A stretch of 64,000 nucleotides of DNA from an uncultured Acidobacteriaceae bacterium (lineage in GTDB: Bacteria; Acidobacteriota; Terriglobia; Terriglobales; Acidobacteriaceae). The translations under genes were made by a program, and so were the position numbers. The notes beneath the pieces are model-generated. The model did no database searches and was not told the origin of the DNA. It saw only the letters and a list, made by a program, of their open reading frames with translations. The stretch is from contig CAVSYW010000002.1 of the NCBI GenBank assembly GCA_963732305.1, positions 860,694 to 924,693 of the forward strand, in the 5' to 3' direction. Below are positions 4,817 to 24,200 of this stretch, one piece after another (position 1 is the stretch's first letter; each line of letters opens with the position of its first letter).

Positions 4817-6038
4817 GATTCCGCAAAGCGGAATTTTCGGGGCCGCTCGCCGACTTGTGCGCGGCGCCTACCGCAGCCTCATCGAGAGGGTACACGAGGG
4901 CCACATTGCGCGGGGTCAACAACTGGTGCTTGACGAAGATGGCCGCCGGCACTGGTTTTTGCTGCAGAATATTGAGCGCCAGGGGAATCAGTTCATCGCC
5001 GTAGCGTTCGGGGAAATAGGCCACCGATCCGACCAGCCGCGTGCCCGGCCTGCGCAATTCCGCGCGCGCTTCGCGGAGGGCATTCTGGCCCATCACGGCG
5101 CACTGCTGCGATGCGCCGGCTTCTTCAAAAGCGCGCAGCGCGGCCAGTGCGCAGATATCGTTCACCGTGCCCACGAGCGTGCGGCGCGGTTCGCGGCGGC
5201 GCAGGTACTTGCGCAGCACGTCGAGCACCTGTTCAAAATTTCCGCGGCCGTTGAGCCGGACCAGCGGAGCCTCGACAATTCTCGGCAACTCCGCGCGCAG
5301 CCCGTCGACCAGGCCGGAAAGGCGCAACTCCAGGAGCGACCCGGCGATGGGCAGCTCCACAAGAACCAGCTGATCCACCTTGCCTTCCCAGTTTTCGCGC
5401 GCCCAACGGCCCAGGGCGCGACCGCCGATGAGCCCGGCCTTATAATTATCCGCGCCGAAGTAAGTAGCGCCTGGATGCGGCACTTCGATGGCGATGACGG
5501 GCACGTTTGCGGCCAGAAATTTTGAGGCGATGACGGGCGCCACGCGCTCGTAGGTCTGGAATTCGAGGACCAGGTCGACGCGTTCGCGAATCAGCACATC
5601 GGCGTTGCGCAACGCCTCGCGGGCGCTGTAGCGATTGTTGAGGGTGATGAGCTGCACGTGCTCACGCGCCGCTGCGTTGACCAAGCTGCGCGTCACCTCG
5701 CGCGCAAATTCAGTGTCGCCCTGCGTAGCAAAACCGATGCGGAAAGGCCGCGCCGTGACCGGTCCAAAACTGTTGCGATAGACGCCCGCACTCACGCGCT
5801 CCACCAGCCCGCCGTGAATGAGCGTGCGCAGCAGGCGAAAGGTGGTGGTCTTGGGCAGGCCGGTGCGCTCCATTACAGTGGTGAGCGGCAAATCTTCTCC
5901 GAGATGACGAAAAGCTTTGAGCACTTCGCATGCGCGCAGAACAGTCTGCGACTCATTGCGGTCGCTGCTGCGGCCATTCGCCTCCGCGGCGTCCTGCTCC
6001 AGATCCTCCGGGGCCTGTTTGTCCTCGCGTCGCGCCAC
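4797..6038 (-). CDS. Transcriptional regulator: IclR-type HTH fused to a periplasmic sugar-binding-like domain
   Basis: N-terminal SQTVLRACEVL...TGLPKTTTFRLLRTL HTH followed by a LacI/RbsB-type domain (VIAIEVPHPGATYFGADN, VMGQNA). Confidence 0.85.
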   Translation of the reverse strand: MARREDKQAPEDLEQDAAEANGRSSDRNESQTVLRACEVLKAFRHLGEDLPLTTVMERTGLPKTTTFRLLRTLIHGGLVERVSAGVYRNSFGPVTARPFRIGFATQGDTEFAREVTRSLVNAAAREHVQLITLNNRYSAREALRNADVLIRERVDLVLEFQTYERVAPVIASKFLAANVPVIAIEVPHPGATYFGADNYKAGLIGGRALGRWARENWEGKVDQLVLVELPIAGSLLELRLSGLVDGLRAELPRIVEAPLVRLNGRGNFEQVLDVLRKYLRRREPRRTLVGTVNDICALAALRAFEEAGASQQCAVMGQNALREARAELRRPGTRLVGSVAYFPERYGDELIPLALNILQQKPVPAAIFVKHQLLTPRNVALVYPLDEAAVGAAHKSASGPENSALRNQKAAEV

Positions 6039-6362: not shown

Positions 6363-7214
6363 ATGGAAATGCCGCCGAAAGAACCGGAGCGCGCTGCTTG
6401 GCTGAAGCACAGAGCCAATTGGATCCGGCTCAGCGCCATGACCATGAACCATCATGCGCAACTGGGTCACACCGGCGGCGATCTCTCCGCAGCCGACATC
6501 CTGGCCGTGCTGTTTCTCGGCGGACTTTTGAAAATTGACCCTGCGCAACCCCGATGGCCCGAGCGTGATCGCTTCATTCTCTCCAAGGGGCACGGCGCCG
6601 CGGCGTATTATTCGACGCTCGCCGCGCGCGGATTTTTCCCGATCGAGCAGCTTAAGACCTACATGGACCCGCTCTCGATGCTGAACGGCCATCCAGACCG
6701 CAACAAGCTGGCCGGCGTCGAGGCCAACACCGGCCCGTTGGGGCACGGGTTGCCCATCGCTGTGGGCGCGGCGTTGGCTGCCCGCATGAGAAAGGAGTCC
6801 TGGCGGGTGTTTGTCCTCACCGGCGATGGTGAGTTGCAGGAGGGCTCCAACTGGGAGGCCGCGATGACCGCGCAACACTACGGTCTCGACCAACTCACCG
6901 TAATTGTGGACCGCAATCGCATCCAGCAGGGCGATTTTACGGAAAATACGATTCGCATGGAGCCGTTGGCCGAGCGCTTCCGGGCGTTCGGATTCGCCGT
7001 GGAGGAAATCGACGGCCACTCCACTGCGGCACTCTTCGATCGCTTGTCGCATTTGCCTCTGGAAAAGAGCAAGCCCTCGTGCATCATCGCGAACACGGTG
7101 AAGGGCAAGGGTGTTTCTTTCGCGGAAAATCAACCTGCATGGCATCATGGCGTGCCAACGAAGGAGCAACTTGCCACGGCGGCGAGAGAACTTGGCGTGG
7201 AGGTGGCGTGGTGA
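6363..7214 (+). CDS. aptA: Transketolase N-terminal subunit (apulose-4-phosphate transketolase A-like)
   Basis: GHTGGDLS, LSKGH, GPLGHGL, GDGELQEGSNWE ThDP motif, WHHGVP; AGGAG upstream of ATG 6363. Confidence 0.85.
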   Translation: MEMPPKEPERAAWLKHRANWIRLSAMTMNHHAQLGHTGGDLSAADILAVLFLGGLLKIDPAQPRWPERDRFILSKGHGAAAYYSTLAARGFFPIEQLKTYMDPLSMLNGHPDRNKLAGVEANTGPLGHGLPIAVGAALAARMRKESWRVFVLTGDGELQEGSNWEAAMTAQHYGLDQLTVIVDRNRIQQGDFTENTIRMEPLAERFRAFGFAVEEIDGHSTAALFDRLSHLPLEKSKPSCIIANTVKGKGVSFAENQPAWHHGVPTKEQLATAARELGVEVAW

Positions 7215-8179
7215 GCGGCTTATCCTCATCTGCAACCGGCCAGCAGCTCTTCGACTGCCGCGACGCCTATATGAACGCTCTTGAAGAGATGGCGGCCGTC
7301 GACCCGCGCGTGTGTGCCGTGGCCAACGACTCGGTGTCTTCGGCGAAGCTCAAGAATTTTAAAAGCAAGTTCCCTGAGCGCTTTGTCAATGTCGGCATTG
7401 CCGAACAGAACATGGTGGGCGTAGGCGCGGGGCTGGCAAACGGCGGCATGGTTCCTTACGTCTGCGGCGCGGCGTGCTTCCTGACCGCGCGCGCCATGGA
7501 GCAGATCAAAGTCGATCTCGCGTACACCAAAGCAAACGTGAAGCTCTGCGCCATGTCGCCGGGCATGGCCTACGGACAGCTTGGGCCCACGCATCACTCC
7601 ATTGAAGATTTGGCCTGGATGCGCGTGCTGCCGAATCTCGTCGTGATTGTTCCGGCCGATCCCGCGGAGACCGCGGCTGTGATGCGCTACTCGCTCGTGC
7701 ACGAGGGGCCGATGTTCCTGCGCATCGCGCGCGTGCCCGTGCCGCGCGTGCATGGTGACGATTACGAATTCAGATTGGGTAAAGCTGTGCGGTTGCGCGA
7801 GGGCTGCGATGTAACTCTTATTGCGAACGGTCTGTTGGTGAGCCGCGCCCTCGATGCGGCCAAAGCGCTTGAGGCGCGCGGACTATCGGCGCGCGTGCTG
7901 AATATGAGTACTGTGAAACCGCTCGATGGCGAGGCGATTCTTGATGCGGCCCGCACCACTCGCGGCATTGTCACCGCGGAGGAAGCATTGGCGGCCGGTG
8001 GATTGGGTGGCGCAGTCGCCGAGGTGCTTGCGCTGGAACATCCCGCGCCGATGCGCATACTGGGCGTGCCCGACGTTTTCGCGCCTACGGGTACGGCAGA
8101 ATTCCTGCTCGAACATTTTGGGCTGACCGCGGCGGGGATCGAATGCGCGGCCCTGGAACTGCTGAAGCGAGAGGCATAG
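7211..8179 (+). CDS. aptB: Transketolase C-terminal subunit (apulose-4-phosphate transketolase B-like)
   Basis: VNVGIAEQNMVG, RAMEQIK, GPTHHSIED, GGLGGAVAE; GTGA overlap with aptA. Confidence 0.85.
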   Translation: MSGLSSSATGQQLFDCRDAYMNALEEMAAVDPRVCAVANDSVSSAKLKNFKSKFPERFVNVGIAEQNMVGVGAGLANGGMVPYVCGAACFLTARAMEQIKVDLAYTKANVKLCAMSPGMAYGQLGPTHHSIEDLAWMRVLPNLVVIVPADPAETAAVMRYSLVHEGPMFLRIARVPVPRVHGDDYEFRLGKAVRLREGCDVTLIANGLLVSRALDAAKALEARGLSARVLNMSTVKPLDGEAILDAARTTRGIVTAEEALAAGGLGGAVAEVLALEHPAPMRILGVPDVFAPTGTAEFLLEHFGLTAAGIECAALELLKREA

Positions 8180-9691
8180 ATGGCAGGCGAATGGATTCTC
8201 GCGATCGACCAGGGAACGACCAACACCAAAGCATTGTTGGTGGATCGCGAAGGGCGCACTGGCTATCGTGTCTCGACGCCGCTTGAAATCCTGCAACCGC
8301 AGCCGGGCTTTGTGGAGCAGGATCCGCTCGCGCTCTGGCAGTCGGTGGTTCAAGTCATCGTGGCGTGTGCGCGCCACGCGAGGTCGGAAGGCGCAACCAT
8401 TACGGGAATCGCGATCACGAATCAGCGCGAGACCGCTGTTGCATGGCGTCGGGCCGCAGCGGGAAGCTTCGCCGCGGGTGAACCTGTGGGCAACGCCATC
8501 ACCTGGCAGTGCCGGCGTTCCGCGCCCGTCTGCGATCGCGTTCGCACGCATGCGGCGACGATTCAATCCGTGACGGGTCTCCCGCTCGACCCGTTGCTGA
8601 GCGCCACCAAGTGGGCGTGGCTCTTCGATCAGCATCCCGAACTGCGGGCACAGGCAGCGCTTGGCGATCTGCATCTCGGCACCGTCGACGCGTGGTTGCT
8701 TTATAACCTGACCGGTGGCAGGGTTCACGCCACCGATCACACGAACGCTTCGCGCACCGCGCTGCTCAGCTTGGCGACGCTAGATTGGGACCCAGCGCTG
8801 AGCGAGCTTTTCGAAATTCCCCGCGCGGCAATGCCCGCAGTGCGCTCGTCAAGCGGAGATTTTGGAGTTTGCGCTGCCATTCCCGAGCTCGCCGGCGTTC
8901 CTATCGTCGTCCTAATCGGCGACTCGCATGCCGCGCTCGTGGGCCACGGCCGCTACGAGCCGGGAACGGTGAAGGCCACTTATGGCACCGGCTCTTCTCT
9001 CATGATGCTTTCGGCGGAACTCGTGACGGAGGCGAAACAGCTCGCACGCACCGTTGCATGGTCGACGGAGGGCGGCGCGCACTTCGCGCTTGAAGGCAAC
9101 ATCGCCATGAGCGGCGCGGCCGTGCAATGGGTGGGCGAATTCCTCGGCCTTGCGCATCCTGTTGAAGACGCCGCGGCGCTGGCCGCAACCGTACCCGACG
9201 CCGCCGGTTTGATACTCGTGCCCGCAATGGTGGGGCTCGGCGCGCCGCATTGGGACTCGGCTGCGCGCGGCCTGATGACAAATGTCGAGCGCTCGCACAC
9301 GGCCGCTCATCTGGCTCGCGCTGCGATTGATGCGATTGCTTTCCAGGTGGCCGATGTCCTGGAAGCGATGGAAGAGGCCGCGCGTGTGAAGCTGCCGGTT
9401 CTGCTGGCCGACGGCGGCGCTACGCGCAACGATGCGCTGATGCAGATGCAGGCCGACGTTCTGGGCCGGCCCGTGCATCGCTCCACGCAAGAGGATCTCT
9501 CCGCGCGCGGTGCAGCCCTGCTGGGCGGCCTCGCCCTTGGATGGTGGCGCTCGCTCGACGAACTTGCTGCGCTGCCGAATCCTAAGCAGCATTTCGAGCC
9601 GCGCAGTACGCAGGCCGATCGCGGGCGTCTGCGCAGCGCGTGGCGGCTTGCCGTCGAGCGCGCACGGCTCACTGCGGAGCGTGTTGCATGA
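8180..9691 (+). CDS. aplK: FGGY-family sugar kinase, glycerol-kinase-like (apulose kinase-like)
   Basis: LAIDQGTTNTK, ITNQRET, GTVDAWL, TYGTGSS, ADGGATRN; context with aptAB. Confidence 0.75.
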   Translation: MAGEWILAIDQGTTNTKALLVDREGRTGYRVSTPLEILQPQPGFVEQDPLALWQSVVQVIVACARHARSEGATITGIAITNQRETAVAWRRAAAGSFAAGEPVGNAITWQCRRSAPVCDRVRTHAATIQSVTGLPLDPLLSATKWAWLFDQHPELRAQAALGDLHLGTVDAWLLYNLTGGRVHATDHTNASRTALLSLATLDWDPALSELFEIPRAAMPAVRSSSGDFGVCAAIPELAGVPIVVLIGDSHAALVGHGRYEPGTVKATYGTGSSLMMLSAELVTEAKQLARTVAWSTEGGAHFALEGNIAMSGAAVQWVGEFLGLAHPVEDAAALAATVPDAAGLILVPAMVGLGAPHWDSAARGLMTNVERSHTAAHLARAAIDAIAFQVADVLEAMEEAARVKLPVLLADGGATRNDALMQMQADVLGRPVHRSTQEDLSARGAALLGGLALGWWRSLDELAALPNPKQHFEPRSTQADRGRLRSAWRLAVERARLTAERVA

Positions 9692-11256
9692 TCCAGGCGC
9701 ATGAGGCGGAAGCAGAGGTGATTCTGGAGGCCCGCAACATTACCAAGCGTTTTCCCGGCAACGTCGCGCTCGATGGCGTCACTTTCCGTGCGTATCGCGG
9801 ACAAGTGAATGTGCTCATCGGTGAAAACGGCGCGGGGAAGTCGACGCTGATGCGCATCCTGGCGGGCGCGGAAAAAGCCGATGATGGTCAACTGTTTCTC
9901 GATGGCCGGCCGATTGAGCTGCGCTCGCCGCGCGATGCATCGTCGCACGGAATCTCGATTGTCTACCAGGAGTTGCTGACCCTAACCAATCTGAAGATCA
10001 GCGAAAACATTTTTGCCGGCCGGGAACTTTGTCGCGCGGCGGTGCTGGTCGATCAAGTGGCAGAAGACCGGCGGTCGAGATCGGTTCTTGAGCACCTGCG
10101 GAAACCCATGGATGTGGGCACCGAAACAGGGAGGCTGTCGCTCGGTTGCAGGCAGGTGGTGGAGATTGCCCGCGCCCTCGATCAGGGTTCGAGGATTCTG
10201 ATTCTGGATGAGCCGACTTCCGCGCTTTCGGCATCGGAGGCGGAGTCGCTTTTCGAGGTCATCGCAGATTTGAAGGGCGCCGGTGTGACGATCATCTACA
10301 TCTCGCACCGGCTGCATGAACTACTCCATCTTGGCGATCGATTTACCGTGCTGCGCTCGGGGCGCGTGGTGGGCGAGGCGACACGAGCCGACGCGACGCG
10401 CGCGTGGATCGTGGAGCGCATGTCGGGTCGCAAGGAAGGCGCTAGCGACGCGCCCACTGCGATTGCGCCGGCTCGTCCCACGGTGCTGACGGTAAGGGGC
10501 CTCACTCTGCCCGGCTCGGTTGGTGATGAAGCCGCACGGGCAGCGTTGCACGATGTAAGTCTTGATCTCCGCGAAGGCGAAATCCTCGGAGTCTACGGGC
10601 TGCTGGGCGCGGGACGAACCGAACTGGTGGAATCGCTTGCCGGTCTTCGGCCAATCGCGTCGGGATCTGTAGCAATTCGAGGACAAAGAATTCGCAACGG
10701 CAGCGTGCGCGACGCATTAAGGGCGGGGATGGTCCTGATGCCCGAAGACCGGCAGCGCGACGGCCTCTTTCCGGAGCTTTCGATTCGCGAAAATGTCGTC
10801 ATGGCGGCGGAGACGGGCCTCTTTCTTTCGCGAGACGAAGAGACCAATCGTGTGCGCAAGCTTACGGCTGAATTGCACATCGCTGCGAAAGACATCGAGC
10901 ATCCCGTGACCACGCTTTCCGGAGGAAATCAGCAGAAGGTGCTGTTGGCGCGATGCCTGATGTGCTCACCATCGGTTCTGTTGATGGACGAGCCGACCCG
11001 CGGTGTCGATGTGGGCGCAAAGGCCGAGATTTACGGCATTCTGCGCGAGCTGGCGGCGAAAGGACTGAGCATTTTGTTTACGTCATCGGAGATCGAAGAG
11101 ACGCAAGCGCTCGCCGCACGCGTGCTTGTGCTCTGCCAGGGACGAATTTCAGCGGAGTTTTCGCACAACGAGTTGAGCGACGAGGGCTTGTTTGCCGCTG
11201 CCAGTCCTTCAGTTACCGCTTCGGCCAACAAATCGATCGCGGGAGGTACCGCATGA
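9688..11256 (+). CDS. Sugar ABC transporter ATP-binding protein (double ATPase, CUT2 family)
   Basis: GENGAGKST, LILDEPT, LSGGNQQKV, LMDEPTRGVDVGAK; ATGA overlap. Confidence 0.95.
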   Translation: MIQAHEAEAEVILEARNITKRFPGNVALDGVTFRAYRGQVNVLIGENGAGKSTLMRILAGAEKADDGQLFLDGRPIELRSPRDASSHGISIVYQELLTLTNLKISENIFAGRELCRAAVLVDQVAEDRRSRSVLEHLRKPMDVGTETGRLSLGCRQVVEIARALDQGSRILILDEPTSALSASEAESLFEVIADLKGAGVTIIYISHRLHELLHLGDRFTVLRSGRVVGEATRADATRAWIVERMSGRKEGASDAPTAIAPARPTVLTVRGLTLPGSVGDEAARAALHDVSLDLREGEILGVYGLLGAGRTELVESLAGLRPIASGSVAIRGQRIRNGSVRDALRAGMVLMPEDRQRDGLFPELSIRENVVMAAETGLFLSRDEETNRVRKLTAELHIAAKDIEHPVTTLSGGNQQKVLLARCLMCSPSVLLMDEPTRGVDVGAKAEIYGILRELAAKGLSILFTSSEIEETQALAARVLVLCQGRISAEFSHNELSDEGLFAAASPSVTASANKSIAGGTA

Positions 11257-12338
11257 GTTCCGCCACGCACAACCAACCGCGCGTCCATCGTTTCGCGTTG
11301 GCGTCGGCTCGCGCTATTCTGCTTCTGCTGCGGGCCCGCGCCATTATGGTGCTGGTGTTGCTTCTCGCCTTGTTCTCCGTGCTTGCCCCTGAGTTTCTCA
11401 CCGCCAACAACCTCTCGATCCTCACCAAGCATGTAGCCATCACCGCAATTCTTGCGGTGGGGATGACCTTTGTCGTGCTGACCGGCGGCATCGATCTATC
11501 AGTTGGCTCCATCGCAGGACTCGGCGGTATGGTGGCGGGTTATCTTCTCACGCAGGGGCTCTCGATTGGCGGCGGGACGCATTATCCGCCTGTCGCCATC
11601 GTCATCCTGCTCACGATCTGCGCGTGCCTGCTGGTGGGTGCGCTCAACGGATGGCTGGTTGCCAAGGCCGGCGTCGCTCCGTTCATTGCGACGCTGGGCA
11701 CGCTCTATATCGCACGCGGCGCGGCGCTGTTGATCTCGAACGGAAAAACGTTTCCTAATCTTGGCGGCGGAGCATCGAGAGGCAGTACGGGATTCCCCGC
11801 ATTCGGTCAAAGTTTCCTGCTGCATGTGCCCACGCCGGTCTGGATGATGATGGCGCTCTTCGCTGTGGCGTGGGTGGTGGCGACGAAGACCCCGTTCGGC
11901 AGGCATGTATATGCGATTGGCGGAAACGAACGCGCGGCGCGGCTGGCGGGCATTCGCGTGGCGCAGGTGAAGGTGGCCACGTATGTCTTTTCGGCGTTCT
12001 GCGCTGCGCTGGTCGGGCTCATCATCGCGGCGCAACTGGAGGCCGCACATCCGGCAACCGGTGAAAGCTTTGAGCTGAACGCGATAGCGGCGGTGGTGCT
12101 GGGCGGAACGTCGCTGATGGGCGGCCGAGGCTCGGTGACGGGCTCGCTGATTGGCGCGTTTGTGATCGGGGTTCTTGCCGACGGCCTGGTGATGCTGGGC
12201 GTTTCTGAGTTTTGGCAGATCGTGATCAAAGGCGTAGTGATTGTGCTGGCCGTCGGACTCGATCAGTTGCAGACGCGGCTGCAGGCCAGGATTCTGCCGT
12301 ACTTGACTACGGCGAGCGTCGGGGAAGGCCAATCATGA
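11253..12338 (+). CDS. Sugar ABC transporter permease (RbsC-like)
   Basis: TGGIDLSVGS, FIATLG, FGRHVYAIGGNERAARLAG, IAAVVLGGTSL. Confidence 0.95.
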   Translation: MSSATHNQPRVHRFALASARAILLLLRARAIMVLVLLLALFSVLAPEFLTANNLSILTKHVAITAILAVGMTFVVLTGGIDLSVGSIAGLGGMVAGYLLTQGLSIGGGTHYPPVAIVILLTICACLLVGALNGWLVAKAGVAPFIATLGTLYIARGAALLISNGKTFPNLGGGASRGSTGFPAFGQSFLLHVPTPVWMMMALFAVAWVVATKTPFGRHVYAIGGNERAARLAGIRVAQVKVATYVFSAFCAALVGLIIAAQLEAAHPATGESFELNAIAAVVLGGTSLMGGRGSVTGSLIGAFVIGVLADGLVMLGVSEFWQIVIKGVVIVLAVGLDQLQTRLQARILPYLTTASVGEGQS

Positions 12339-13282
12339 TGCGCCGCGCGCTTGCCCTGTTTGGATGCGGGTTGGCGCTGCTGCTTGTGTGCGCCGGATGC
12401 CACCGCGACCAGCATCGCAAGAAGTTGATCGTCATCATTGTTCCTTCGCAAGACAATCCCTATTTCAAGGCCGAAGCCGATGCCGCCGCCGCGCGCGCGC
12501 TCGAACTCGGCTATCGCGTGCGCGTGGACGCGCATGAAGACGACGCGTATCGTCAGGACAACCTGGTGGATGCAGCCATCGCCTCGAATGCAGCGGTCAT
12601 CATATTGGACAATGCGGGCGCCGATGCAACCGTGTCTGCGGTCCGTCGCGCAACCAAAGCGGGCATCGCAGTGTTTCTCATTGACCGAGAAATCGACGCC
12701 ACGGGGATTGCGAAGGCGCAGATCATTTCAGACAACGATCAAGGTGCGCGGCTGGTTGCGGCGGAGTTTGCGCGCGCGATGAACGGAAAGGGCGAGTACG
12801 CGGAGCTGATTGGCAAAGAATCCGACACCAACGCCCAGATTCGCACCAAAGGCTTTCACGCCGTGCTCGATCGGTTTCCGGGCCTCAAGCTGGTCTCCGC
12901 GCAGTCCGCGAACTGGTCGCAGTCGGAGGCGTTTCAAAAGACAGAAACCATGCTGCAAGCCCACGGGAATATCGCAGGCATCATTGCCGGGAACGATACG
13001 ATGGCTCTGGGAGCCGCGGCGGCAGTGAAGTCCGCCGGGATTTCGAACCTGCAGATCACAGGATTCGATGGCAGCCCCGATGCGATTGACGCCATCAAGG
13101 CCGGCGAGTTGCGTGCCACCGCCTTGCAGCCGGCCGTGCTGATCTCTCGGCTCGCAGTGGACGAGGCAGATCGGTTTTTGAAGACGGGCTCGACCGGCCA
13201 GCAGGAACTGCAAATCATTCCCTGCGAGCTGGTCACTGCCAGCAATGCGGGCGACTATCGCAATTTTGAAAAGGTAAGGTGA
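12335..13282 (+). CDS. Sugar ABC substrate-binding lipoprotein, D-apiose-binding-protein-like
   Basis: Lipobox VCAGC; segments DNPYFKAEA, LDNAGADA, FLIDREI, GKESDTNA, SANWSQ, GNDTMA, recalled as characteristic of apiose import binding proteins. Confidence 0.8.
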   Translation: MMRRALALFGCGLALLLVCAGCHRDQHRKKLIVIIVPSQDNPYFKAEADAAAARALELGYRVRVDAHEDDAYRQDNLVDAAIASNAAVIILDNAGADATVSAVRRATKAGIAVFLIDREIDATGIAKAQIISDNDQGARLVAAEFARAMNGKGEYAELIGKESDTNAQIRTKGFHAVLDRFPGLKLVSAQSANWSQSEAFQKTETMLQAHGNIAGIIAGNDTMALGAAAAVKSAGISNLQITGFDGSPDAIDAIKAGELRATALQPAVLISRLAVDEADRFLKTGSTGQQELQIIPCELVTASNAGDYRNFEKVR

Positions 13283-14724
13283 GCGTCATGGCGAATTCAA
13301 CTTGTCTTGGAGTCATCGTTGGCAATCGCGACTTCTTTCCCGATGTGCTGATCGCGGAAGCTCGCAAAGATCTGACCAAGCTTTTTGCGGAGCTGAAGAT
13401 CGAGCCGGTCTGGCTTTCGCCTGAAGAGTCGAAGCTGGGCGCGGTGGAAACCTGGGCCGACGCGCAGAAATGCGGCGAGCTGCTGCGCAGAAACCGCGAC
13501 CGCGTCGAGGGCGTCCTGGTCTGCCTGCCGAATTTCGGCGACGAGAAAGGAGTTGCCGACTCCATCCGCCTCGCTGAAACGCACGTTCCGGTTCTGGTGC
13601 AGGCTTGCCCCGACGATCTCGATCAGTTCGGTCTCGACCGCAGGCGCGACGCGTTCTGCGGCAAGATTTCGGTCTGCAACAATCTGCGCCAGTACCGGAT
13701 TCCGTATTCGCTCACGCGCGATCACACGGTGGCGATCCTCGATGCGCGGTTCCGCGAAGACCTGGTGCAGTTTGTCCAAACCTGCAAGGTGGTGCGCGGT
13801 CTGAGCCGGGTGCGCATCGGAGCGGTTGGAGCGCGGCCCAACGCATTCAACACCACGCGCTTCAGCGAAAAACTTTTCGAAGCTTCAGGCATCACGGTGA
13901 ACACCATCGATCTTTCCGAAGTTTTTGGAAATGCCGCCAAGATCTCCAGCGACGACAAGCGCGTCGGCGAGCGCGTCGACAAAATTCGTTCGTATGCCGA
14001 TGCGTCGAAAGTCCCCGATGAGGCCATTGTGCGTATGGCGAAGTTTGCGCTGGTGGTGGACGACTGGATGCAGTCGCTATCGATCACGGCGACCGCCATC
14101 CAGTGCTGGAGCTCGCTGCAGAAAAACTTTGGCGTGAATGTGTGCACCATCATGTCGATGATGAGCGAGCAGATGCTGCCCTCGGCTTGCGAAGTGGACA
14201 TCGCAGGCGTCGTAGGCATGTACGCATTGCAACTTGCCAGCGATAGCCCAAGCGCACTCGTTGACTGGAACAACAATTACGGCGGCGATCCCGAGAAGTG
14301 TGTTTTTTTCCACTGCGGCAACTGGGCTAAGGACTTTCTGCCCGACATCCGCATTGCCACCGCGCCTATTCTTGGCACGACGCTGGGCGAAGAAAACACG
14401 TTTGGCGCGCTGGAGGGCCGCACGCTTGCTGGACCTGTGACCTTCGGCCGCGTCAGCACTGACGACCTCAACGGCAGAATCACCGCTTACGTCGGCGAAG
14501 GCGAATTCACGAACGATCCGCTGAAGACCTTCGGCACGCGAGCGGTAGTGAAAGTGGCAGGGCTGCCGGCGCTCATGCATGTGATCTGCCAGAACGGCTT
14601 TGAGCACCACGCCGCGATGAACCGCAGTCACACCGCAGCCGCGGTAGCCGAGGCGATGAGCCGCTATCTTGGCTGGACGACTTATCACCACAACCGGCCG
14701 GCGGAATTACCTCCCTTGCCGTGA
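13279..14724 (+). CDS. L-fucose/L-arabinose isomerase family protein
   Basis: NFGDE, DAFCGKISV, AIQCW, SACEVD, FHCGN, GFEHH motifs; GTGA overlap with the SBP gene (alternative ATG 13288). Confidence 0.85.
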   Translation: MSVMANSTCLGVIVGNRDFFPDVLIAEARKDLTKLFAELKIEPVWLSPEESKLGAVETWADAQKCGELLRRNRDRVEGVLVCLPNFGDEKGVADSIRLAETHVPVLVQACPDDLDQFGLDRRRDAFCGKISVCNNLRQYRIPYSLTRDHTVAILDARFREDLVQFVQTCKVVRGLSRVRIGAVGARPNAFNTTRFSEKLFEASGITVNTIDLSEVFGNAAKISSDDKRVGERVDKIRSYADASKVPDEAIVRMAKFALVVDDWMQSLSITATAIQCWSSLQKNFGVNVCTIMSMMSEQMLPSACEVDIAGVVGMYALQLASDSPSALVDWNNNYGGDPEKCVFFHCGNWAKDFLPDIRIATAPILGTTLGEENTFGALEGRTLAGPVTFGRVSTDDLNGRITAYVGEGEFTNDPLKTFGTRAVVKVAGLPALMHVICQNGFEHHAAMNRSHTAAAVAEAMSRYLGWTTYHHNRPAELPPLP

Positions 14725-14808: not shown

Positions 14809-14962
14809 ATTGTGCGCCGGATGGGTTTAAGTATCTGCAAAAAAGACAGGGATCAGGGAGCGAGGTTCATGGATCAACAAATGAACGGGCTAGGGTGAGG
14901 CAGAGGCTTCGAATTGGATGGTGCAGGGCTTGACTTGTGAAAATATTGCGGCGGTTTCCCCG
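14809..14962. repeat. Copy 1 of a ~155-bp imperfect direct repeat
   Basis: attgtgcgccg...tatctgcaa..aagacag...atgaacggg.tagggtga...ttggatggtgcagggcttgac.tgtgaaaa; recurs 644 bp later. Confidence 0.8.
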
Positions 14963-14992
14963 GTCCCCAAAGGCGAGGGACCGGGGGAACCC
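14958..14992. repeat. REP-like hairpin family A (CCCCGGTCCC-loop-GGGACCGGGG-GCACCC)
   Basis: Perfect 10-bp stem; further copies at 15719, 15799, 15879, 15959, 32113, 33577, 35606, 45872. Confidence 0.8.
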
Positions 14993-15452
14993 GCGCTCAA
15001 GCGTTTAACGGCACTGGAAAGAGAATCGAGCCCTCCGGTGTGCGGAAGGCCCGAAGCGTGGGGTCTGTGCGATCCCCGGCAAGTTAGCAAGTCAGCGAGC
15101 GGACCAGGAGCGCTTTTTTGCAACTGGCTTGTTTTCTGCAAGATGGCAAAAGCGTACTGGGATACTGCCAAAGTACGATGTTTTGAAATTCCTCCCAAGT
15201 CAAACAATCCAAATTGTTTAGGTGGCTTCACAGTTTCTTTGTCGATTTTTGAATTGCAGGGCGCGAGCCGCCCCATCGGGCAAGAATCACCCGCTGGCGG
15301 CCCCGGAGTGCCGGCCGGAAAACCAGACTCCGATTGGCACTCCGGGGTGGGGGGAGGGGTGGGGGAGTTATTAGGTAGTTAACAGACGCCAGTGAGCCGG
15401 AGAAGCGGTGGCGGGAATTGATTGTCGTGGCCTGGGGGCTGCTCATAGAACG

Positions 15453-15606
15453 ATTGTGCGCCGAATACATTTAATTATCTGCAATCAAGACAGAGATCAC
15501 GGATCAGGGGCCAGGGATCGGAAAATGAACGGGTTAGGGTGAATCAGAGACTTCGATTTGGATGGTGCAGGGCTTGACCTGTGAAAACAGGGCGGCGCTT
15601 TCCCCG
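15453..15606. repeat. Copy 2 of the ~155-bp imperfect direct repeat
   Basis: Aligns by eye with 14809-14962. Confidence 0.8.
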
Positions 15607-15718
15607 ATCCGTCCGCCTCGCCACGGCGAGCAGGCGCGGCGGACGAGGAACCGAGGGCACCCTCAACTTGGTGAGATCTTCCCTAAGTTAGGAGCCATCC
15701 GGCCCGTCTCCTCGACCT

Positions 15719-15995
15719 CCCCGGTCCCCAAAGGCAAGGGACCGGGGGCACCCTCATTCGTGCGTGGCGGAGGGACCGAGGGGTGCGGTCTGTGCGATCC
15801 CCGGTCCCCAAAGGCAAGGGACCGGGGGCACCCTCATTCGTGCGTGGCGGAGGGACCGAGGGGTGCGGTCTGTGCGATCCCCGGTCCCCAAGTGCAAGGG
15901 ACCGGGGGCACCCTCATTCGTGCGTGGCGGAGGGACCGAGGGGTGCGGTCTGTGCGATCCCCGGTCCCCAAGTGCAAGGGACCGGGGGCACCCTC
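15719..15995. repeat. 80-bp tandem repeat (about 3.5 units), each carrying a family A hairpin
   Basis: ccggtcccca recurs at 15721, 15801, 15881, 15961; units identical except in the loop (aaggca to agtgca). Confidence 0.95.
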
Positions 15996-16094
15996 GTACA
16001 TGTCTGGCGGCTTAGTTCACGGGGGCACCCTCGTACATGTCTGGTGGCTTAGTTCACGGGGGCACCCTCGTTCATGTCTGGCGGCCTAGTTCGC
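15984..16094. repeat. 37-bp tandem repeat (3 units) running into the stop codon of the adjacent gene
   Basis: gggggcaccctcgtacatgtctggcggcttagttcac at 15984, 16021, 16058. Confidence 0.9.
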
Positions 16095-19000
16095 CGTCAC
16101 CGTGAAGGTGGTGGAGGCCGTGGGGCTGACCACGGGGTTGCTGGTTGGGGTCACTGTAAAGGTGTAGGTGCCCGCTGTTGTAGGAACATAGTTCACGGTA
16201 ACCGAAGCGGATTGCCCCGAGGAGGGGTTGTAGGCGGTGCTGCCCTGATAGGCGGCCGTGAGGATCACGCTGGTGCCGCCTGCGAAAGTGCTGGCGGGAA
16301 TCGTAAGGGTGACGCTTCCGTTGGTGAGCGTACTATTCAGCCCGGCTTCGGCTCCTCCGGAGAGAGTGACGCCTCCGGTGGCTGTGCCCGCGGAGCCGGT
16401 GACCGTAACAGTGACCATGAGCGGAGCATTGGCTTCAATCGTGTTCGATGCGGGCGTGACGGTGACGGTGGGAGTTGGCAGTGTGGGTGCGGTTGTCCCT
16501 CCTCCTCCTCCGCTGCTGCCTCCGCTGCAGCCTGCGAAGGTGAGTGTTAGAGAGACGATGAGTAGAAGCACGCTCATCAAATTTCTCCACTTGCGTGCGC
16601 CTCCGGGGATTACAAGGAGGAGGAGCGCGGCGAGTGCAGCGCTGCCGACAGCTCCGGACAACTTAGTTCCCCTGGAAAGAGGTGCGTGGGGAGTCGCGGG
16701 CGCGGAGAGCTTCGTCAACTGCGTGGCCTTGGCGCTTGGGCCGGTTACACCGGGGCCGATATTGGGCCGGCGGAGCTCGGACACGGTTGTCAATGAGGTT
16801 GTGTGGATGGCAAAGGTGACGGGCGACCCGGTGGGCGCGCCATTGGCGAACGTTACCGTTCCGTTGCCTGAGAGCGTGCAGGTCGGATTGGCCGGATTTG
16901 AAGCGCTCGCCCCGTTAGAGTATGCGGTGAGCACGCAGGACGCGGATGTGAAGGTCACAGTGCCGGTGTAATTACTGGTTGAAGAGACTGCAACCGATGC
17001 CGTGGCCGCCGTTCCGGGAGTGACCGTAGACGACGGGCCCGTACCGGTGAGCGAAAAGACCGACTGCGCAACGGCCAGTTTTGCTGTGGCCGACACTTGG
17101 GCGTAGTTCGTGTCTCCAAGGTAGCTGGCGGTAATGGGATCGCCCGACGGGAGGCTTGGGACTGGCGACAGCGTGTTTGCGGGGATGGTGAACGTGGCAA
17201 CTCCGCTGGAATTAAGGGCCGCACTCGCCGGCGCCGCAGCCGTGAAGTAGCCGCTGCCATAAAGGGTCACGGTTCCAGAGGGGACTGCGGCGCCCGTGCA
17301 GCTCCCGGTGGGGTTCGGTGGGGTGTTGCAGGCCAGGCTCACTGTGACCAGCAGCGGGGAGCCTGAATTCACGGTAGAGGTGGCCGGTGTGACGGTTATT
17401 GTGGTAGCGAGCACCTGGAAGAACTTGACAGTAACGGAAGTGGTGGTGCTTCCGGGGTTGTAGTTGGAGTCGCCGCTGTACTGGACGTTGAGCGCGTCGA
17501 TCTGGTTGGGCGTTCCTCCGGGGAGCGAGTTGGGCGTGATGATCACTGAATATTGCCCGCTGCTGTTGAGCTGGGCCAACCGCCGAGGTGTAAGAGGTTC
17601 CGTAGGAGACGGTCACCGTCCCGGTTGGTATTGCGCCCGTGCCCGTCACGGTTCCCGTGATGACGACTTGCTGGTTGGATTGAATGGAGGACGGCGTGGG
17701 TGCGGCCGACACTGAGGGGGTGAGTTTGTTTACCGTGACGCCGGCGGTTTGGCTGTTGGGCGCGTAGTTGGCGTCTCCGGAGTAGTTCACGGTCAGGGTG
17801 TCGGCTCCCCCGGCGAGGGTGCCGGCGGGGATGACAAAAGTGTAGGAGCTGGTGGTATTGGCCCCGCCGCTGACGAGCGCTTCCGTCGAGGAGGTGTAGC
17901 CGCCGCCGGAGAGAGTTACCGACCCGGAGGGCGTCGTTTTGCCGGAGGGACTGCTGCCTACAGTGACCGTGACGTTAAGGCTTGCGCCCAAAGAAACAGG
18001 GTTGGGAGCCGGCGTCACGGTTATGGTGGTTGCGCCTGATCCGATGATGGAGACCCAATTGTTGACCACGTTGGTTACGTTCAGCGAACCCAGGCCAGTA
18101 GCAAGGTCGTAGCCGGCGGTCGCGGAATAGCCGTTGAGGATGCCAAGGCCTTCGTCGGAGTCGGCGTAGCCCAAGGTGCTGTAGGACGCGGTGCAGTTGG
18201 GAGAATCGACGCCATTGTCGTAGATATCTTCGTCGCAGGGCATGGCGCTGGTACCCGAATCGATGTCGTTGAACATACAAGTGGTGCTGCCGGCCTTGAC
18301 GGTCTCAGCGCTGCAGGCGTTGTAGCCACTTAAGCTCTGCTTCGCCGCCAGTGTGTAAAGCTCGGGGTTTGCGAAGCCTTGTGTGACCCCCGTCTTCTGA
18401 TTGATGAGCGCCATGACACCCGCCATTGCCGGGGTTGCGACCGAAGTTCCACCCACTTCCTGGTAGAAGGACTCTTTATAGGTGGAGTATGTGCATGGGG
18501 CGTTGCCGCCGTCTGCCTGGGAGACGCAGATGAGGTAGGCGCTCGATGATGTGTATCCGTCGGAGGCGAAGAAGCTGACGTCGGGCAGATCGCGCACGCC
18601 GTCGCTGGGAATGTTGGTGATGCCGGTTGTGCAGTTTGCTGGATTTCCGGGGGTAACGCAGGTTTGTTGCCAGCCCGGCTTGGGCCAGCCGTTGTTGACG
18701 AGATTGAGTGAGGCCTGCGGAGCGTTCGTATCGGGATTCGTGGTGGCGCCGGTGCTGGTGGATCCGGCGGTGCAGCCGGAGAATGCGCCGGTCTCATCGT
18801 TTATCACTGCGTTGCCCACTATGCAGTTGCTGGCTCCGCCGCTTCCGCCTACGGTTTCAAGAAGATAAGTGATGTAGGGGTAGGTGACACCAAGGCCCTC
18901 GTACCCGTCATAGTAGGTGAAATCGTAATCAAGAAGGAAGTTGCAGGACTGTTCGGTGTTTGCAATCCCGTTCGATCCGGACGATGGGATGCCGTAGATG

Positions 19001-20750
19001 AAATTCGCTGCATCCTGCACCCACTGCAGCGTGAGCGGATTGGTGCAGGACTCATTCCATGGGGTCTCGGGTACGTAGCCCAGTGCGGATGTGACTGCCG
19101 TGGTCGATCCTGGGCTTTGAATTGGAATGCTGCTCCAATAGGGCGCGGCCGTGCACTCTGTGTTGGCTGAGCCGTTGGCGGTGTCCGGGTTGCACCAGTT
19201 GAAGTCCGTGCCACCTACCGCGGTGTTCCAGGGAGTGGAGGCAAGCCCGCTGACGGTGAGCCCGGACTCTGCGACGAAGTTGCCGTCATCGCAGGAAGCT
19301 GAGCCGGAGTCGCCGGCAGCGACAAATACGGAGATTCCTTCGGCTGCAGCCTGTTGCCAGAGATTCGTAGTACTGGACGTTGCCCGCGGTGCCGTTGCCG
19401 AGTTCGCACTCGCCATAACTGACGTTCATGATGCGGGCGCCGTTGAGCGGAGAGGCCGCGTTGGCGACGTTGTTGACGATGTAGCTTTCAGAATCGTAGA
19501 GGTTGTCGTCGGTGACCGATGCGGGGTAGGAGGAAACCAGGATAATCTGCGCGTTTTTGGCGATCGACGCCGACCATTCGACGTCGAGCGAGTTTTCAGT
19601 AAGATCGTCGATGCCGCATGGGTTGTCTTCATAGGGAACCGTGCCGGTGGTGTCAGTGCAAACGGTGAGGGGCTCGCTGTTTCCGGAGAGGCGAATGGGC
19701 GTGTTGGCCGCATTGCCGGTTGGCAGGCCGAAGTAGTTACGGAAGGTGTAGACGTCGTTGTTGTATGGGGGGTTGGTGACGTTGCCATTAAAACAAGCGG
19801 TTACCGTCTGGCCGACACAGATGTCGCTGGTTCCGGCAATGGCAATCGTCTGTCCCGTGCCATCGATCACCCCGGCAGACGTGGTTCCGTTCCAGAGGGG
19901 AAGAACGTTGTAGATGGTGGCGAAGTCCCACGGGTCCACATCCTCGACCTGGTAGGCGCTGTTACCGCCGATGCTGATGCCGAACTGCGGGCTTGTCTTT
20001 GCGGGCTTGGTCACGGCGAGCGACCTGTTTGTGGGGGTCGCTGAGGCTGAGGTGGAGGGCGAGACAGGGGAGCTCGTGATCCGCATCCATTTGCCGGACG
20101 ACGCGTCACGTTGGACTGTTTGGCCCATGTGGTGCTCGGGCCGCGGGAAGAAATTGTGCAGAGCTTTGACGCCGACGACGACGGTAGAGAGAGCGGCGGG
20201 GATCTGCGGGTCGCTCATGTTGCCGATGTGCGCCTCGCCCTTGACCGTGAGGTTATGAATCTCAGTGTGGAAGGCGCTCTGGACCTGGCCTGCCGTTGCC
20301 GCCGAAGCGGATGGACATGTGGTCTTTGGTGACCTGGGAGACGGCGAATCCGTGGCCGGTGAGCCAGTTGGTGATGGTCTGGATGTCGGTCTGTGAGGGT
20401 CCGAACTGGTCGCCGATCTGATCGGGCGTGAGCCACCGATGGTAGTTGGGCGAGTTCTGGTCGTATTCGCCGGCGACGTAGGCATCGAAGGCGGCCTGCT
20501 GCGCCGGATCGCGGCTGAGGACCAGGATGAGATCGGTCATGGGCAGGCTGTCGGACACCTTGCCCATGTCGTGCCTGGCATTGGCGAAGGGATGGGTGTT
20601 GCCCTTGAGCGTGACCAACTGGGACTCGTCAATGCGATTGACAATGCGGACGGTGGGCGCGACTCTTTGCCCCTGGGCGGCGGGTAATAAGAGGACACTG
20701 GGCGATATGCACAGGGCGACGAACAGGGGGAGCGAACGCAGGTTGATCAT
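16086..20750 (-). pseudogene. S53 (sedolisin) peptidase with pro-domain and Ig-like repeats, split by three +1 frameshifts (~1553 aa if repaired; may be sequencing error)
   Basis: Signal peptide MINLRSLP, pro-domain, ENSLDVEW, AAGDSG, GGTSVATP, GYDLATGLGS; shifts near 20297, 19365, 17579 identified by comparison with the intact paralog. Confidence 0.88.
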
Positions 20751-21138
20751 AGTGGGTGGTCCTGGACCCTTTCTTGAGAAAGACCCTCGATTGGGGGAAG
20801 AGTTGCCGTGCGTGAGAGAAAAACCGGCGCGGGGCCGGTGGGATTCGCGTTCATGGGACGAATTGAAGACAAGACCATCATAGGACGGCTGCTTGGTTGC
20901 TCTGGCACCCATTTCCGCAAAAGACGCAGAAATGCATGAGGCACGGGATAGTTGGCAAGGCCGCGCCGGCAAACATTGCCAAGTTGGGAAGAGACCGCAC
21001 GGATTCGAACGATGGATTTCAAGATTGCGCGCGAAGGTACTTTTCCGTGACAAATGCGAATGTTTGATGCCGGATGAAAAATGAAAAATGGAAGCGAGCG
21101 GGCCTTTGTGGAATGAACCGCCCGTGAACTCGCAGTGT

Positions 21139-21168
21139 TAGACGTTTGGAAAGGGGGAAATGTTGACA
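21139..21168 (-). promoter_or_regulatory. Candidate ECF-sigma promoter upstream of S53 gene 2
   Basis: Minus strand TGTCAAC-N17-CGTC; same motif and spacing at 28852-28879. Confidence 0.6.
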
Positions 21169-21222
21169 AAGCAGGGAGACAGGGCTCGGTGCAGGAGGGC
21201 TCGGAGGGTGAGATTTGTGCGT

Positions 21223-21267
21223 TCCCATCCTTTCGGGGGTGAAGCTGCCGAAAGGATGGGGCACGGG
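21223..21267. repeat. REP-like hairpin with GGGGCAC tail downstream of S53 gene 1
   Basis: CCCATCCTTTCGG-loop-CCGAAAGGATGGG-gcacgg; related hairpins at 40090-40216. Confidence 0.65.
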
Positions 21268-21290
21268 ATTTTTGCTGGGTTGAGGTTGCG

Positions 21291-24200
21291 CTAGTTCACC
21301 GTGACGCTGAAGGTCGCGGTGACCGTGGGGGTGACGGACGGGTTGGCGGTCGAGGTCACGGTGAATACGTAGGTTCCGGCTGTGGTGCCAGAATCGGTGT
21401 AGCCTCCGCCTCCGCCTCCGCCTCCGCCGCTGCCGCCACAGCTTGCCAGGCCGCCGATGGCGATCATGACGACAAGAAGTGAGAGCATAGAGCGCCAGGA
21501 CCGGCGGCGGGCCGGGATGCCGAAGAAGACGAGCAGGGCGAGGATTGCGCCGGAGCCCGCGCCCAGCCATTCGCGGCCATTGCCGCCCGGCAGATTCGGA
21601 CGTCGATTCTGCGCCACGGTATGTGTCACGGTGGTGCCGACGGTAAAGGTGACGGTGCAACTCGATCCGCAGGTCGCGAAATTAATCTGGCCGTTGTTGC
21701 TGCCTGTGCAAGTGGGCGTGTCGTCAGGGTACGAGCTGGACGGGTCGCCGGAGGCCTCAGCACACGAGAGAGTGACGGCACCGGTGTAGCCGGCGACGGC
21801 CGTTCCGGTGACGACAACCGTTGCCGAACTTCCGGGCGCGACGCTGGAGGGGCTGGCCGTACCTGCTGCAAGGGTGAAGGTGGAAGTGACGGTGACCGAG
21901 CCGGTATTTTGCCCCGACGTGTAGTTGGTGTCGCCACCGTAGTTCGCAGTCAGCGTGACACTGCCAGTGCTGAGCGCGTTGGCGGGGATGGTGAAGACGC
22001 AGGCAGTGTTGCTGGCGCAGGGGCTGGTCCCGATGGTCTCTAATGTGGCCGTGTAGCTGCCGCTGGAAGCGCTGAGGGTGATGGTACCTGTGGGCGTAGA
22101 GCCGCCGCCGGTCACCGACACGGTCACATTCAGGCTGGCATTGGCGTTGACCGAGGACGAAGCCGGCGTGACAGTGATGGTGGGAGTGAGCGGAGCTGGG
22201 GTGACGGTGACTGAGCCGGTGTTTTGCGCCAACGTGTAGTTGGTGTCACCACTGTATTTCGCAGTCAGCGTCACACTTCCAGTGCTGAGCGCGTTGGCGG
22301 GGATGGTGAAGACGCAAGCAGTGTTGCTGGTGCACGGGCTGGTCCCAATGGTCTCTAATGTGGCTGTGTAAGTGCCGCTGGAAGCGCTGAGGGTGATGGT
22401 GCCTGTGGGCGTAGAGCCGCCGCCGGTCACCGACACGGTGACATTCAGGCTGGTGTTGGCGACGATGGAGGACGAAGCCGGCATGACGGTGATTGTGGGC
22501 GGAGCCGCTGTGACGGTGACCGAGCCGGTACTTTGCGCCAACGTGTAGTTGGTGTCACCACTGTATTTCGCAGTCAGCGTCACACTTCCAGTGCTGAGCG
22601 CGTTGGCGGGGATGGTGAAGACGCAAGCAGTGTTGCTGGCGCAGGGGCTGGTCCCGATGGTCTCTAATGTGGCCGTGTAAGTGCCGCTGGAAGCGCTGAG
22701 GGTGATGGTGCCTGTGGGCGTAGAGCCGCCGCCGGTCACCGACACGGTGACATTCAGGCTGGTGTTGGCGACGATGGAGGACGAAGCCGGCATGACGGTG
22801 ATTGTGGGCGGAGCCGCTGTGACCGTGACCGAGCCGGTACTTTGCCCCAAAGTGTAGTTGGTGTCACCACTGTATTTCGCGGTCAGCGTGACACTTCCAG
22901 TGCTGAGCGCGTTGGCGGGGATGGTGAAGACGCAAGCGGTGTTGCTGGCGCACGGGCTGGTCCCGATGGTCTCCAATGTGGCTGTGTAGCTGCCGCTGGA
23001 AGCGCTGAGGGTGATAGTGCCTGTGGGTGTTGCGCCGCCGCCGGTCACCGACACGGTGACATTCAGGCTGGTGTTGGCGACGATGGAGGACGAAGCCGGC
23101 ATGACGGTGATTGTGGGCGGAGCCGCTGTGACGGTGACCGAGCCGGTACTTTGCGCCAACGTGTAGTTGGTGTCACCACTGTATTTCGCAGTCAGCGTGA
23201 CACTGCCAGTGCTGAGCGCGTTGGCGGGGATGGTGAAGACGCAAGCGGTGTTGCTGGCGCACGGGCTGGTCCCAATGGTTTCCAGTGTGGCCGTGTAGCT
23301 GCCGCTGGAAGCGCTGAGGGTGATAGTGCCTGTGGGTGTTGCGCCGCCGCCGGTCACCGACACGGTGACATTGAGGCTGGTGTTGGCGACGATGGAGGAC
23401 GAAGCCGGCATGACGGCGATGGTGGGCGGAGCCGCTGTGACCGTGACCGAGCCGGTGTTTTGCGCCAAAGTGTAGTTGGTGTCGCCACTGTATTTCGCAG
23501 TCAGCGTGACACTGCCAGTGCTGAGCGCGTTGGCGGGGATGGTGAAGACGCAAGCGGTGTTGCTGGCGCACGGGCTGGTCCCAATGGTTTCCAATGTGGC
23601 TGTGTAGCTGCCGCTGGAAGCGCTGAGGGTGATAGTGCCTGTGGGTGTTGCGCCGCCGCCGGTCACCGACACGGTGACATTCAGGCTGGTGTTGGCGACG
23701 ATGGAGGACGAAGCCGGCATGACGGTGATTGTGGGCGGAGCCGCTGTGACGGTGACCGAGCCGGTACTTTGCGCCAACGTGTAGTTGGTGTCACCACTGT
23801 ATTTCGCAGTCAGCGTGACACTGCCAGTGCTGAGCGCGTTGGCGGGGATGGTGAAGACGCAAGCGGTGTTGCTGGTGCACGGGCTGGTCCCGATGGTTTC
23901 CAGTGTGGCCGTGTAGCTGCCGCTGGAAGCGCTGAGGGTGATAGTGCCTGTGGGTGTTGCGCCGCCGCCGGTCACCGACACGGTGACATTCAGGCTGGTG
24001 TTGGCGACGATGGAGGACGAAGCCGGCATGACGGTGATTGTGGGCGGAGCCGCTGTGACGGTGACCGAGCCGGTACTTTGCGCCAACGTGTAGTTGGTGT
24101 CACCACTGTATTTCGCGGTCAGCGTGACACTTCCAGTGCTGAGCGCGTTGGCGGGGATGGTGAAGACGCAAGCGGTGTTGCTGGTGCACGGACTGGTCCC

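Follow-up and report, generated by a model that had tools for sequence, protein, structure and literature searches.

Which enzyme isomerizes D-apiose in an operon that looks like one for the transketolase route of apiose degradation, when the only isomerase encoded in it is a relative of L-fucose and L-arabinose isomerases? This question is raised by a locus in the genome of an uncultured, Terracidiphilus-like soil bacterium of the Acidobacteriaceae (GenBank assembly GCA_963732305.1, contig CAVSYW010000002.1), of which a stretch of 64,000 nucleotides, positions 860,694 to 924,693 of the forward strand, was analyzed and is called the window in the following. The transketolase route for D-apiose, together with its chemistry, was reportedly described by Carter et al. 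in 2018 with ApsI as its isomerase, and we take ApsI to be the D-apiose isomerase of EC 5.3.1.38. The original prediction for the window, which was made from the sequence alone, proposed that an isomerase of another fold stands in for ApsI. The comparative analysis described here makes it likely that the isomerase of the window, a protein with a predicted FucI/AraA fold, converts D-apiose to apulose, and that it is analogous in function to, but not homologous with, the isomerase with a triosephosphate isomerase (TIM) barrel that Pectobacterium carries at the same place.

The isomerase and its operon

The apiose cluster to which the locus can best be compared is that of Escherichia coli. Strains of ST131 and of the ST14 complex as well as E. 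fergusonii carry aptA, aptB, aplK, an ATP-binding cassette (ABC) transporter, and two short-chain dehydrogenases/reductases (SDRs), and carriers grow with D-apiose as the only source of carbon; the kinase gene of the E. coli SE15 cluster, ECSF_RS02700, has been named aplK (PMC13001218). The kinase, both transketolase subunits, and the periplasmic substrate-binding protein (SBP) of the window are orthologous to those of the SE15 cluster, with identities of 39 to 45% (Table 1). Seven genes form the operon, in the order aptA, aptB, aplK, ABC ATPase, permease, apiose-type SBP, and isomerase as the last gene, and all junctions are tight, with stop and start codons that overlap or abut when refined starts are used. 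Domain matches bear out what had been claimed for the genes upstream of the isomerase, which encode a split transketolase, an FGGY kinase, an ABC ATPase, a permease, and an SBP. In gene content and in the order of the catabolic genes the operon matches Enterobacterales apiose clusters, while the position of the transporter genes is different.

The best PDB sequence matches of the SBP are 5ibq and 4ry0 (E = 1e-95), both deposited as "probable ribose ABC transporter". These are presumably the structures of a Rhizobium etli SBP crystallized with apiose and with ribose. The nearest plasmid-borne relatives of the SBP (56-59% identity) are found in loci of Paraburkholderia and Rhizobium that are annotated by NCBI with OiaK, OiaX, and a RuBisCO-like protein (RLP), and these loci are oxidative apiose routes. 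Judged by gene content and similarity, the locus of the window looks like a D-apiose transketolase-route operon.

The isomerase has a single Pfam match, Fucose_iso_C (PF02952), which covers residues 343-470 and scores 104.3 bits versus a cut-off of 29.3, and neither Fucose_iso_N1/N2 nor Arabinose_Isome domains were matched in Pfam. The sole match in NCBIfam is SftI (NF048012; E = 2e-31), where the score of 109.2 bits is far below the cut-off of 700. An AlphaFold2 model, built from 39 homologues, has a pLDDT of 91.4 and a pTM of 0.92. The top PDB matches of this model in a Foldseek search are L-arabinose isomerases (E about 1e-23, TM scores of 0.72-0.80, 11-14% identity), followed by D-arabinose and L-fucose isomerases (E about 1e-16 to 1e-18, TM scores of 0.72-0.75 for FucI), and for the three groups taken together the E values extend from 1e-23 to 1e-15; a sequence search of the PDB yielded no chain at an E value of 0.01 or better. 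On the basis of the model we are confident that the protein has the three-domain FucI/AraA fold. The only isomerase of the operon is thus a member of the L-fucose/L-arabinose isomerase family by domain match and modeled fold, as originally predicted.

Six residues, E305, D307, D329, H345, H443, and H444, are invariant across the 39 homologues. They are part of the motifs CEVD (E305-x-D307), LVDW (D329), FHCGN (H345), and FEHH (H443-H444), which resemble, in sequence and spacing, the motifs GEGD, MEDY, SHML, and AHH of AraA and TEND, ADV, and NHG of FucI. The catalytic or metal-binding residues of the E. coli enzymes are presumably E306, E333, H350, and H450 in AraA and E337, D361, and H528 in FucI, and these residues do stand at these positions in the E. 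coli sequences. With regard to substrate, metal, and reaction, we infer that the protein is probably a cytoplasmic, Mn2+-dependent aldose-ketose isomerase that acts on D-apiose. In the proposed pathway, the ABC system would import D-apiose, the FucI-fold enzyme would convert it to apulose by a metal-assisted ene-diol shift at C1-C2, and the FGGY kinase would phosphorylate apulose to apulose 4-phosphate. The split transketolase would then move the C1-C2 unit of apulose 4-phosphate to glyceraldehyde 3-phosphate, and the products would be xylulose 5-phosphate and dihydroxyacetone phosphate. This chemistry corresponds to MetaCyc PWY-8089, as given in the legend to Fig. 6 of PMC13001218.

The reading frame of the isomerase (13279-14724, plus strand) is open from a GTG codon, which would result in a protein of 481 amino acids. 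A start at the ATG at 13288 would result in 478 amino acids, and this ATG seems to be the likelier start, because 478 amino acids is the length of most homologues and because the purine-rich sequence AAGGTAAGGTGA is situated immediately upstream. The isomerase gene had been claimed to be translationally coupled to the SBP gene. The tight arrangement is retained with either start, but the likelier ATG leaves a gap of 5 nt after the stop codon of the SBP gene, in place of the 4-nt overlap that the GTG would give. The nearest homologues of the isomerase are 82-95% identical. Homologues, including the FucI-like members of apiose clusters, are labeled generically as "L-fucose/L-arabinose isomerase family protein", and none of the FucI-like cluster proteins that were checked bears the name "D-apiose isomerase".

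Two isomerase types in one slot of the apiose clusters

Further aptAB-aplK clusters were sought in one GTDB family, the Enterobacteriaceae, and 24 were found in a sample of 401 genomes. In 16 of them aplK is flanked by a FucI-like gene and in five by a gene for a TIM barrel of the family PF01261; three clusters have neither type and none has both. Therefore, a FucI-like or a TIM-barrel gene fills one and the same slot, in a mutually exclusive manner, in 21 of the 24 clusters. The PF01261 proteins have lengths of 331-335 amino acids and belong to the xylose-isomerase-like TIM-barrel family. Four of the five TIM-type clusters are from Pectobacterium, i.e., P. atrosepticum, P. parmentieri, and two Pectobacterium sp. 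(assigned by exact sequence match), and the fifth is of the Erwinia/Gibbsiella type. The protein cluster of the Pectobacterium TIM isomerase also takes in proteins of P. brasiliense, P. aroidearum, and Brenneria. A FucI-like gene was not found in the two Pectobacterium genomes that were searched, and Pectobacterium was not among the matches listed in homologue searches with the Sodalis isomerase and E. coli AplK. In the three clusters of neither type (L139, L141, and L142) no isomerase gene adjoins aplK, and in one of these genomes (G173) a FucI-like gene is located on the same contig at a distance of about 500 kb.

Whole clusters with a FucI-like gene (52-59% identity) beside the transketolase and kinase genes are present in Sodalis praecaptivus, Rahnella aquatilis, Acerihabitans arboris, and the Bacteroidota species Chondrinema litorale. 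The clusters of Sodalis, Rahnella, and Chondrinema prompted the idea that the described ApsI is itself a FucI-like protein, which was rejected, because the Pectobacterium clusters carry a PF01261 TIM barrel instead. The gene apsI is part of the cluster described in P. carotovorum, and the cluster of E. coli is set apart by the absence of apsI and the presence of two oxidoreductases (PMC13001218). Because the TIM barrel is the sole isomerase in the Pectobacterium clusters and apsI has been placed there (PMC13001218), it is very probable that this PF01261 protein is the described ApsI. The original prediction took ApsI to be a TIM-barrel enzyme, in agreement with the gene content of Pectobacterium. 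A literature search, which did not extend to the 2018 article of Carter et al., yielded no statement about the fold of ApsI or about a FucI-type apiose isomerase. It is conceivable, but rather doubtful, that PF02952 neighbors were already noted in that article.

The distribution of the two isomerase types was compared with a phylogenetic tree of the kinase AplK. The TIM-type clusters are nested within the FucI-type clusters twice, in separate parts of the tree, and at least two changes are required by the branches with good support, i.e., with values of at least 95% in the Shimodaira-Hasegawa-like approximate likelihood ratio test (SH-aLRT). The SDR-type cluster of E. coli is joined to those of Sodalis and Rahnella, which are of the FucI type, with 100% SH-aLRT support. 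The exclusive presence of the two types, together with the nesting of TIM-type within FucI-type clusters, is the signature of non-orthologous displacement. The slot has thus received unrelated proteins several times in orthologous clusters, a pattern that, in comparative terms, marks enzymes with the same job. It was also observed, when L004 (E. coli SE15) was compared with L005/L006 and L119-L142, that the AplK proteins of Enterobacterales form two clades with a mutual identity of about 45%, an E. coli/Sodalis/Rahnella type and an Acerihabitans/Pectobacterium type.

The genome of the window seems to have no alternative apiose isomerase. A tblastn search of the window with the Pectobacterium TIM isomerase revealed nothing at an E value of 1e-3 or better. 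The best match to the latter in the whole genome is a PF01261 protein of 419 amino acids, encoded in the window at 32272-33531, which is only 26% identical and belongs to an L-rhamnose-type cluster. The claim that a xylose-isomerase-like TIM barrel is missing thus holds for the operon, in which no PF01261 protein is encoded, but not for the window as a whole. The L-rhamnose-type cluster extends from 29044 to 40036 and comprises lutABC-like genes, the PF01261 gene, a further regulator with an IclR-type helix-turn-helix and a binding-protein domain (34400-35548), a fusion of a class II aldolase with an SDR (36338-38557), and an FGGY kinase (38609-40036). The PF01261 protein is most likely an L-rhamnose isomerase.

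Species-representative genomes were scanned with a pattern for the FucI-like isomerase, and at least 589 stretches were found to encode a relative. Linkage was counted for the best 80 of these at least 589 stretches, all with isomerases of at least 60% identity, within 10 kb of the orthologue. The 80 loci belong to Acidobacteriota, Chloroflexota, Verrucomicrobiota, Planctomycetota, and Deinococcota, and further relatives are present in Bacteroidota and in many Gammaproteobacteria. The isomerase orthologue is linked to aptA in 52 of the 80 loci, to aptB in 51, to aplK in 49, and to the gene for an apiose-type SBP in 45. None of these loci encodes a TIM barrel of the Pectobacterium type. The loci without aptA are cut by contig ends with the exception of three, and only these three have full flanks. 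The isomerase of the window falls within an Acidobacteriaceae clade, the members of which are almost all linked to apt genes, and this clade is well apart from a paralogue encoded in the same genome. The exclusive isomerase types, the AplK tree, and the linkage to apt genes all speak for the core of the original prediction, i.e., that the enzyme is probably a non-orthologous D-apiose isomerase.

Several points weigh against this reading. A group of Chloroflexota orthologues, with identities of 60-65% (L046, L051, L058, L060, L063, L065, L069-L071, and L079), have no aptAB or aplK genes in the available DNA, and two of these loci, L058 and L060, are without them despite full 10-kb flanks; in that group the orthologue may serve another context. 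The paralogue of the isomerase in the same genome (G000:C5:380151-381575, i.e., L144:8151-9575) is 48% identical and is probably an isomerase for another sugar; its gene adjoins that of a sodium:solute symporter, with genes for phosphoketolase and acetate kinase in the vicinity. Specificity within the subfamily has therefore diverged. Profile alignments of the isomerase with AraA and FucI of E. coli did not reach significance, and the likeness of the metal ligands is therefore an argument from motifs and spacing. Lastly, the apiose assignment of the locus itself is based on identities of 39-59% and on synteny.

Alternative substrates and neighboring genes

If the kinase and the transketolase merely resembled AplK and AptAB, the operon could serve another small sugar, e.g., a pentose, a tetrose, or another branched sugar of pectin. 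This alternative is unlikely, but several observations are in line with it: the identity to the validated E. coli cluster is only 39-45%, the kinase scores 495.7 bits with the NCBIfam model of the GlpK subfamily and thus nearly reaches its cut-off of 498, the best PDB matches of the SBP are named after ribose, and the AplK proteins of Enterobacterales are themselves split into two distant clades. It does not easily explain why gene content and catabolic gene order are those of the Enterobacterales apiose clusters, why the closest relatives of the SBP (56-59%) are encoded beside the OiaK, OiaX, and RLP genes of oxidative apiose routes, and why glycosidases of the pectin or rhamnogalacturonan II (RG-II) type, from the families GH127, GH78, GH29, and GH42, surround the locus.

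The isomerase operon faces a second, divergently transcribed operon across a single regulatory gene (Table 1). The product of the latter is a probable regulator of the apiose locus. In five related Acidobacteriota loci the regulator gene (81-94% identity) is also present within 10 kb of the isomerase orthologue, upstream of aptA in four of them (L009, L011, L012, and L017) and downstream in L019. Upstream of the window further glycosidases are encoded (L143:8999-16847), i.e., a GH29 fucosidase, a GH78 rhamnosidase, a GH43-like enzyme, and a GH42 enzyme, while the GH127 gene is inside the window. This setting fits the degradation of pectin and RG-II, with the apiose operon situated inside a larger region for the utilization of plant cell walls. 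Just upstream of the window, at L143:16994-19039, genes for a major facilitator superfamily transporter and an Asp/Glu-racemase-like protein are located.

Table 1. Genes of the proposed apiose locus and of the adjoining divergent operon (window coordinates).
Feature	Coordinates	Strand	Evidence
Divergent operon	363-4741	-	GH127; RuBisCO-like protein (OiaX model, 445 bits vs. 700); DUF1537 kinase (OiaK model, 449 bits vs. 700)
Probable regulator, divergently transcribed	4797-6038	-	HTH_IclR and Peripla_BP_4 (periplasmic-binding-protein-like sensor)
Transketolase N-terminal subunit, thiamine diphosphate-binding, AptA-like	6363-7214	+	Transketolase_N; 45% identity to E. coli AptA; AGGAGA 5' of ATG 6363
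Transketolase C-terminal subunit, AptB-like	7208-8179	+	Transket_pyr, Transketolase_C; 42% identity to E. coli AptB; GTG overlaps aptA stop
FGGY kinase, probable apulose kinase AplK	8180-9691	+	FGGY_N, FGGY_C; 43% identity over full length to E. coli SE15 ECSF_RS02700
ABC ATPase, two ATP-binding domains	9688-11256	+	2x ABC_tran, XylG/AraG/RbsA-like; ATG overlaps kinase stop
ABC permease	11253-12338	+	BPD_transp_2, RbsC-like; ATG overlaps ATPase stop
Periplasmic SBP, apiose type, CUT2/RbsB-like	12335-13282	+	Peripla_BP_4; 39% identity to E. coli apiose-cluster SBP
FucI/AraA-fold isomerase, proposed D-apiose isomerase	13288-14724	+	Fucose_iso_C; AlphaFold2 model; orthologues in aptAB-aplK clusters

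The divergent operon encodes an OiaK-like kinase and an RLP. The genome (91% complete) yielded no orthologue of ApnO, and the enzyme that usually supplies 3-oxo-isoapionate is therefore missing. An arrangement of this kind is not confined to the window. In the Planctomycetota loci L061 (Botrimarina, about 18947-21400) and L081 (Aeoliella, about 14810-17400), genes for an RLP and an OiaK-like kinase follow FucI-aptA-aptB-aplK on the same strand; the RLPs are 52-54% identical to that of the window, the OiaK-like kinases 39%. Therefore, the two modules are paired in a second phylum as well. A far-reaching interpretation would be that the D-apiose isomerase of bacteria is predominantly, and perhaps ancestrally, of the FucI fold, that the TIM-barrel ApsI is a local replacement in Pectobacterium, Brenneria, and Erwinia, and that, where the operon is joined to an OiaK-like/RLP module without ApnO, as in this genome and in the two Planctomycetota, the FucI-fold enzyme also isomerizes another branched sugar, e.g., aceric acid, and thereby opens an undescribed RLP-dependent route. 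In its entirety we regard this combination as very unlikely.

A narrower version is that the isomerase also accepts L-aceric acid, as was part of the original prediction, or another product of the GH127 enzyme, and thereby feeds both the OiaK-like/RLP operon and the transketolase arm. The two operons that face each other over one regulator, the two Planctomycetota loci, and an OiaK-like/RLP pair for which no ApnO orthologue was found as a supplier in the 91% complete genome are all compatible with such a dual role. It is nevertheless highly improbable, because the RLP and OiaK-like pair accompanies only two of the 80 isomerase orthologues, compared to 52, 51, and 49 for aptA, aptB, and aplK, because clusters of Enterobacterales contain the same type of isomerase without such an arm, and because no sequence feature favors an acidic substrate. 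This part of the original prediction is thus not backed by the data.

That the protein is an ordinary isomerase for L-fucose, L-arabinose, D-arabinose, or sulfoquinovose, which merely adjoins a transporter, has next to no likelihood: it would be in line with the Pfam domain, the names of the homologues at NCBI, and the weak SftI match (109 bits versus 700), but it is at odds with the lack of PDB sequence matches at an E value of 0.01 or better, the identity of 11-14% to AraA and FucI structures, the lack of Fucose_iso_N1/N2 and Arabinose_Isome domains, and the linkage to aptAB-aplK that has been kept across phyla, while no fucK/fucA, araB/araD, or sulfoglycolysis genes are found among the genes of the operon.

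Relation to known isomerases and significance

The closest functional counterpart of the proposed FucI-fold D-apiose isomerase is the protein in the ApsI slot of Pectobacterium. It is encoded at the same place next to aplK, in an orthologous cluster of aptA, aptB, aplK, and an ABC transporter, and the same reaction is predicted for both proteins. However, the Pectobacterium protein is a PF01261 TIM barrel of 332 amino acids, the window protein has 478 amino acids and a FucI/AraA fold, and the two folds are unrelated. Such a replacement is not without precedent. SqvD and SftI, which belong to PF02952, are non-orthologous sulfoquinovose isomerases that replace YihS and feed a transaldolase or transketolase cleavage (PMC9594981). 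By profile they are the closest named family (PF02952; NF048012), they are also short FucI-like aldose-ketose isomerases, and their ketose product goes to cleavage by a transaldolase or transketolase, as is proposed for the isomerase of the window. They differ from the latter in that its score with the SftI model remains at 109 of the required 700 bits, in that its operon contains a kinase step, and in that sulfoglycolysis genes are absent from it.

The E. coli enzymes AraA and FucI share with the window protein the overall fold of the model (TM scores of 0.72-0.80 and 0.72-0.75, respectively) and, if the prediction is correct, the class of reaction on unphosphorylated sugars, and their E-x-D, D/E, H, and HH motifs are similar in sequence and spacing. 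The identity of 11-14% and the genomic context set them apart. The canonical FucI of E. coli has about 590 amino acids, N1 and N2 domains, and a fucPIKUR context, in contrast to the window protein with its 478 amino acids, a match to the C-terminal domain only, and no fuc genes in the operon; the canonical AraA has Arabinose_Isome domains and an araBAD context, and the window protein has no such Pfam match and the operon no araB or araD.

For the clusters of E. coli ST131 and E. fergusonii it has been proposed that the two SDR oxidoreductases replace apsI (PMC13001218). They are unrelated to both isomerase types and would catalyze an oxidation and a reduction instead of an ene-diol shift. With the SDR pair, this step would thus be accomplished in a third way.

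The apiose pathway itself is already known, and non-orthologous displacement among sugar isomerases has precedent. If the activity of the FucI-fold enzyme is confirmed, EC 5.3.1.38 would be represented by two unrelated folds, with the SDR pairs of E. coli as a possible third solution, and the FucI-fold form would be the common D-apiose isomerase. Many genes that are now annotated as "L-fucose/L-arabinose isomerase family" could then be given a correct annotation, and the analogous enzyme pair would be tractable for the study of branched-aldose isomerization. Confirmation would also close a gap in the pathway by which soil and gut bacteria turn over the apiose of pectin RG-II and of apiogalacturonan.

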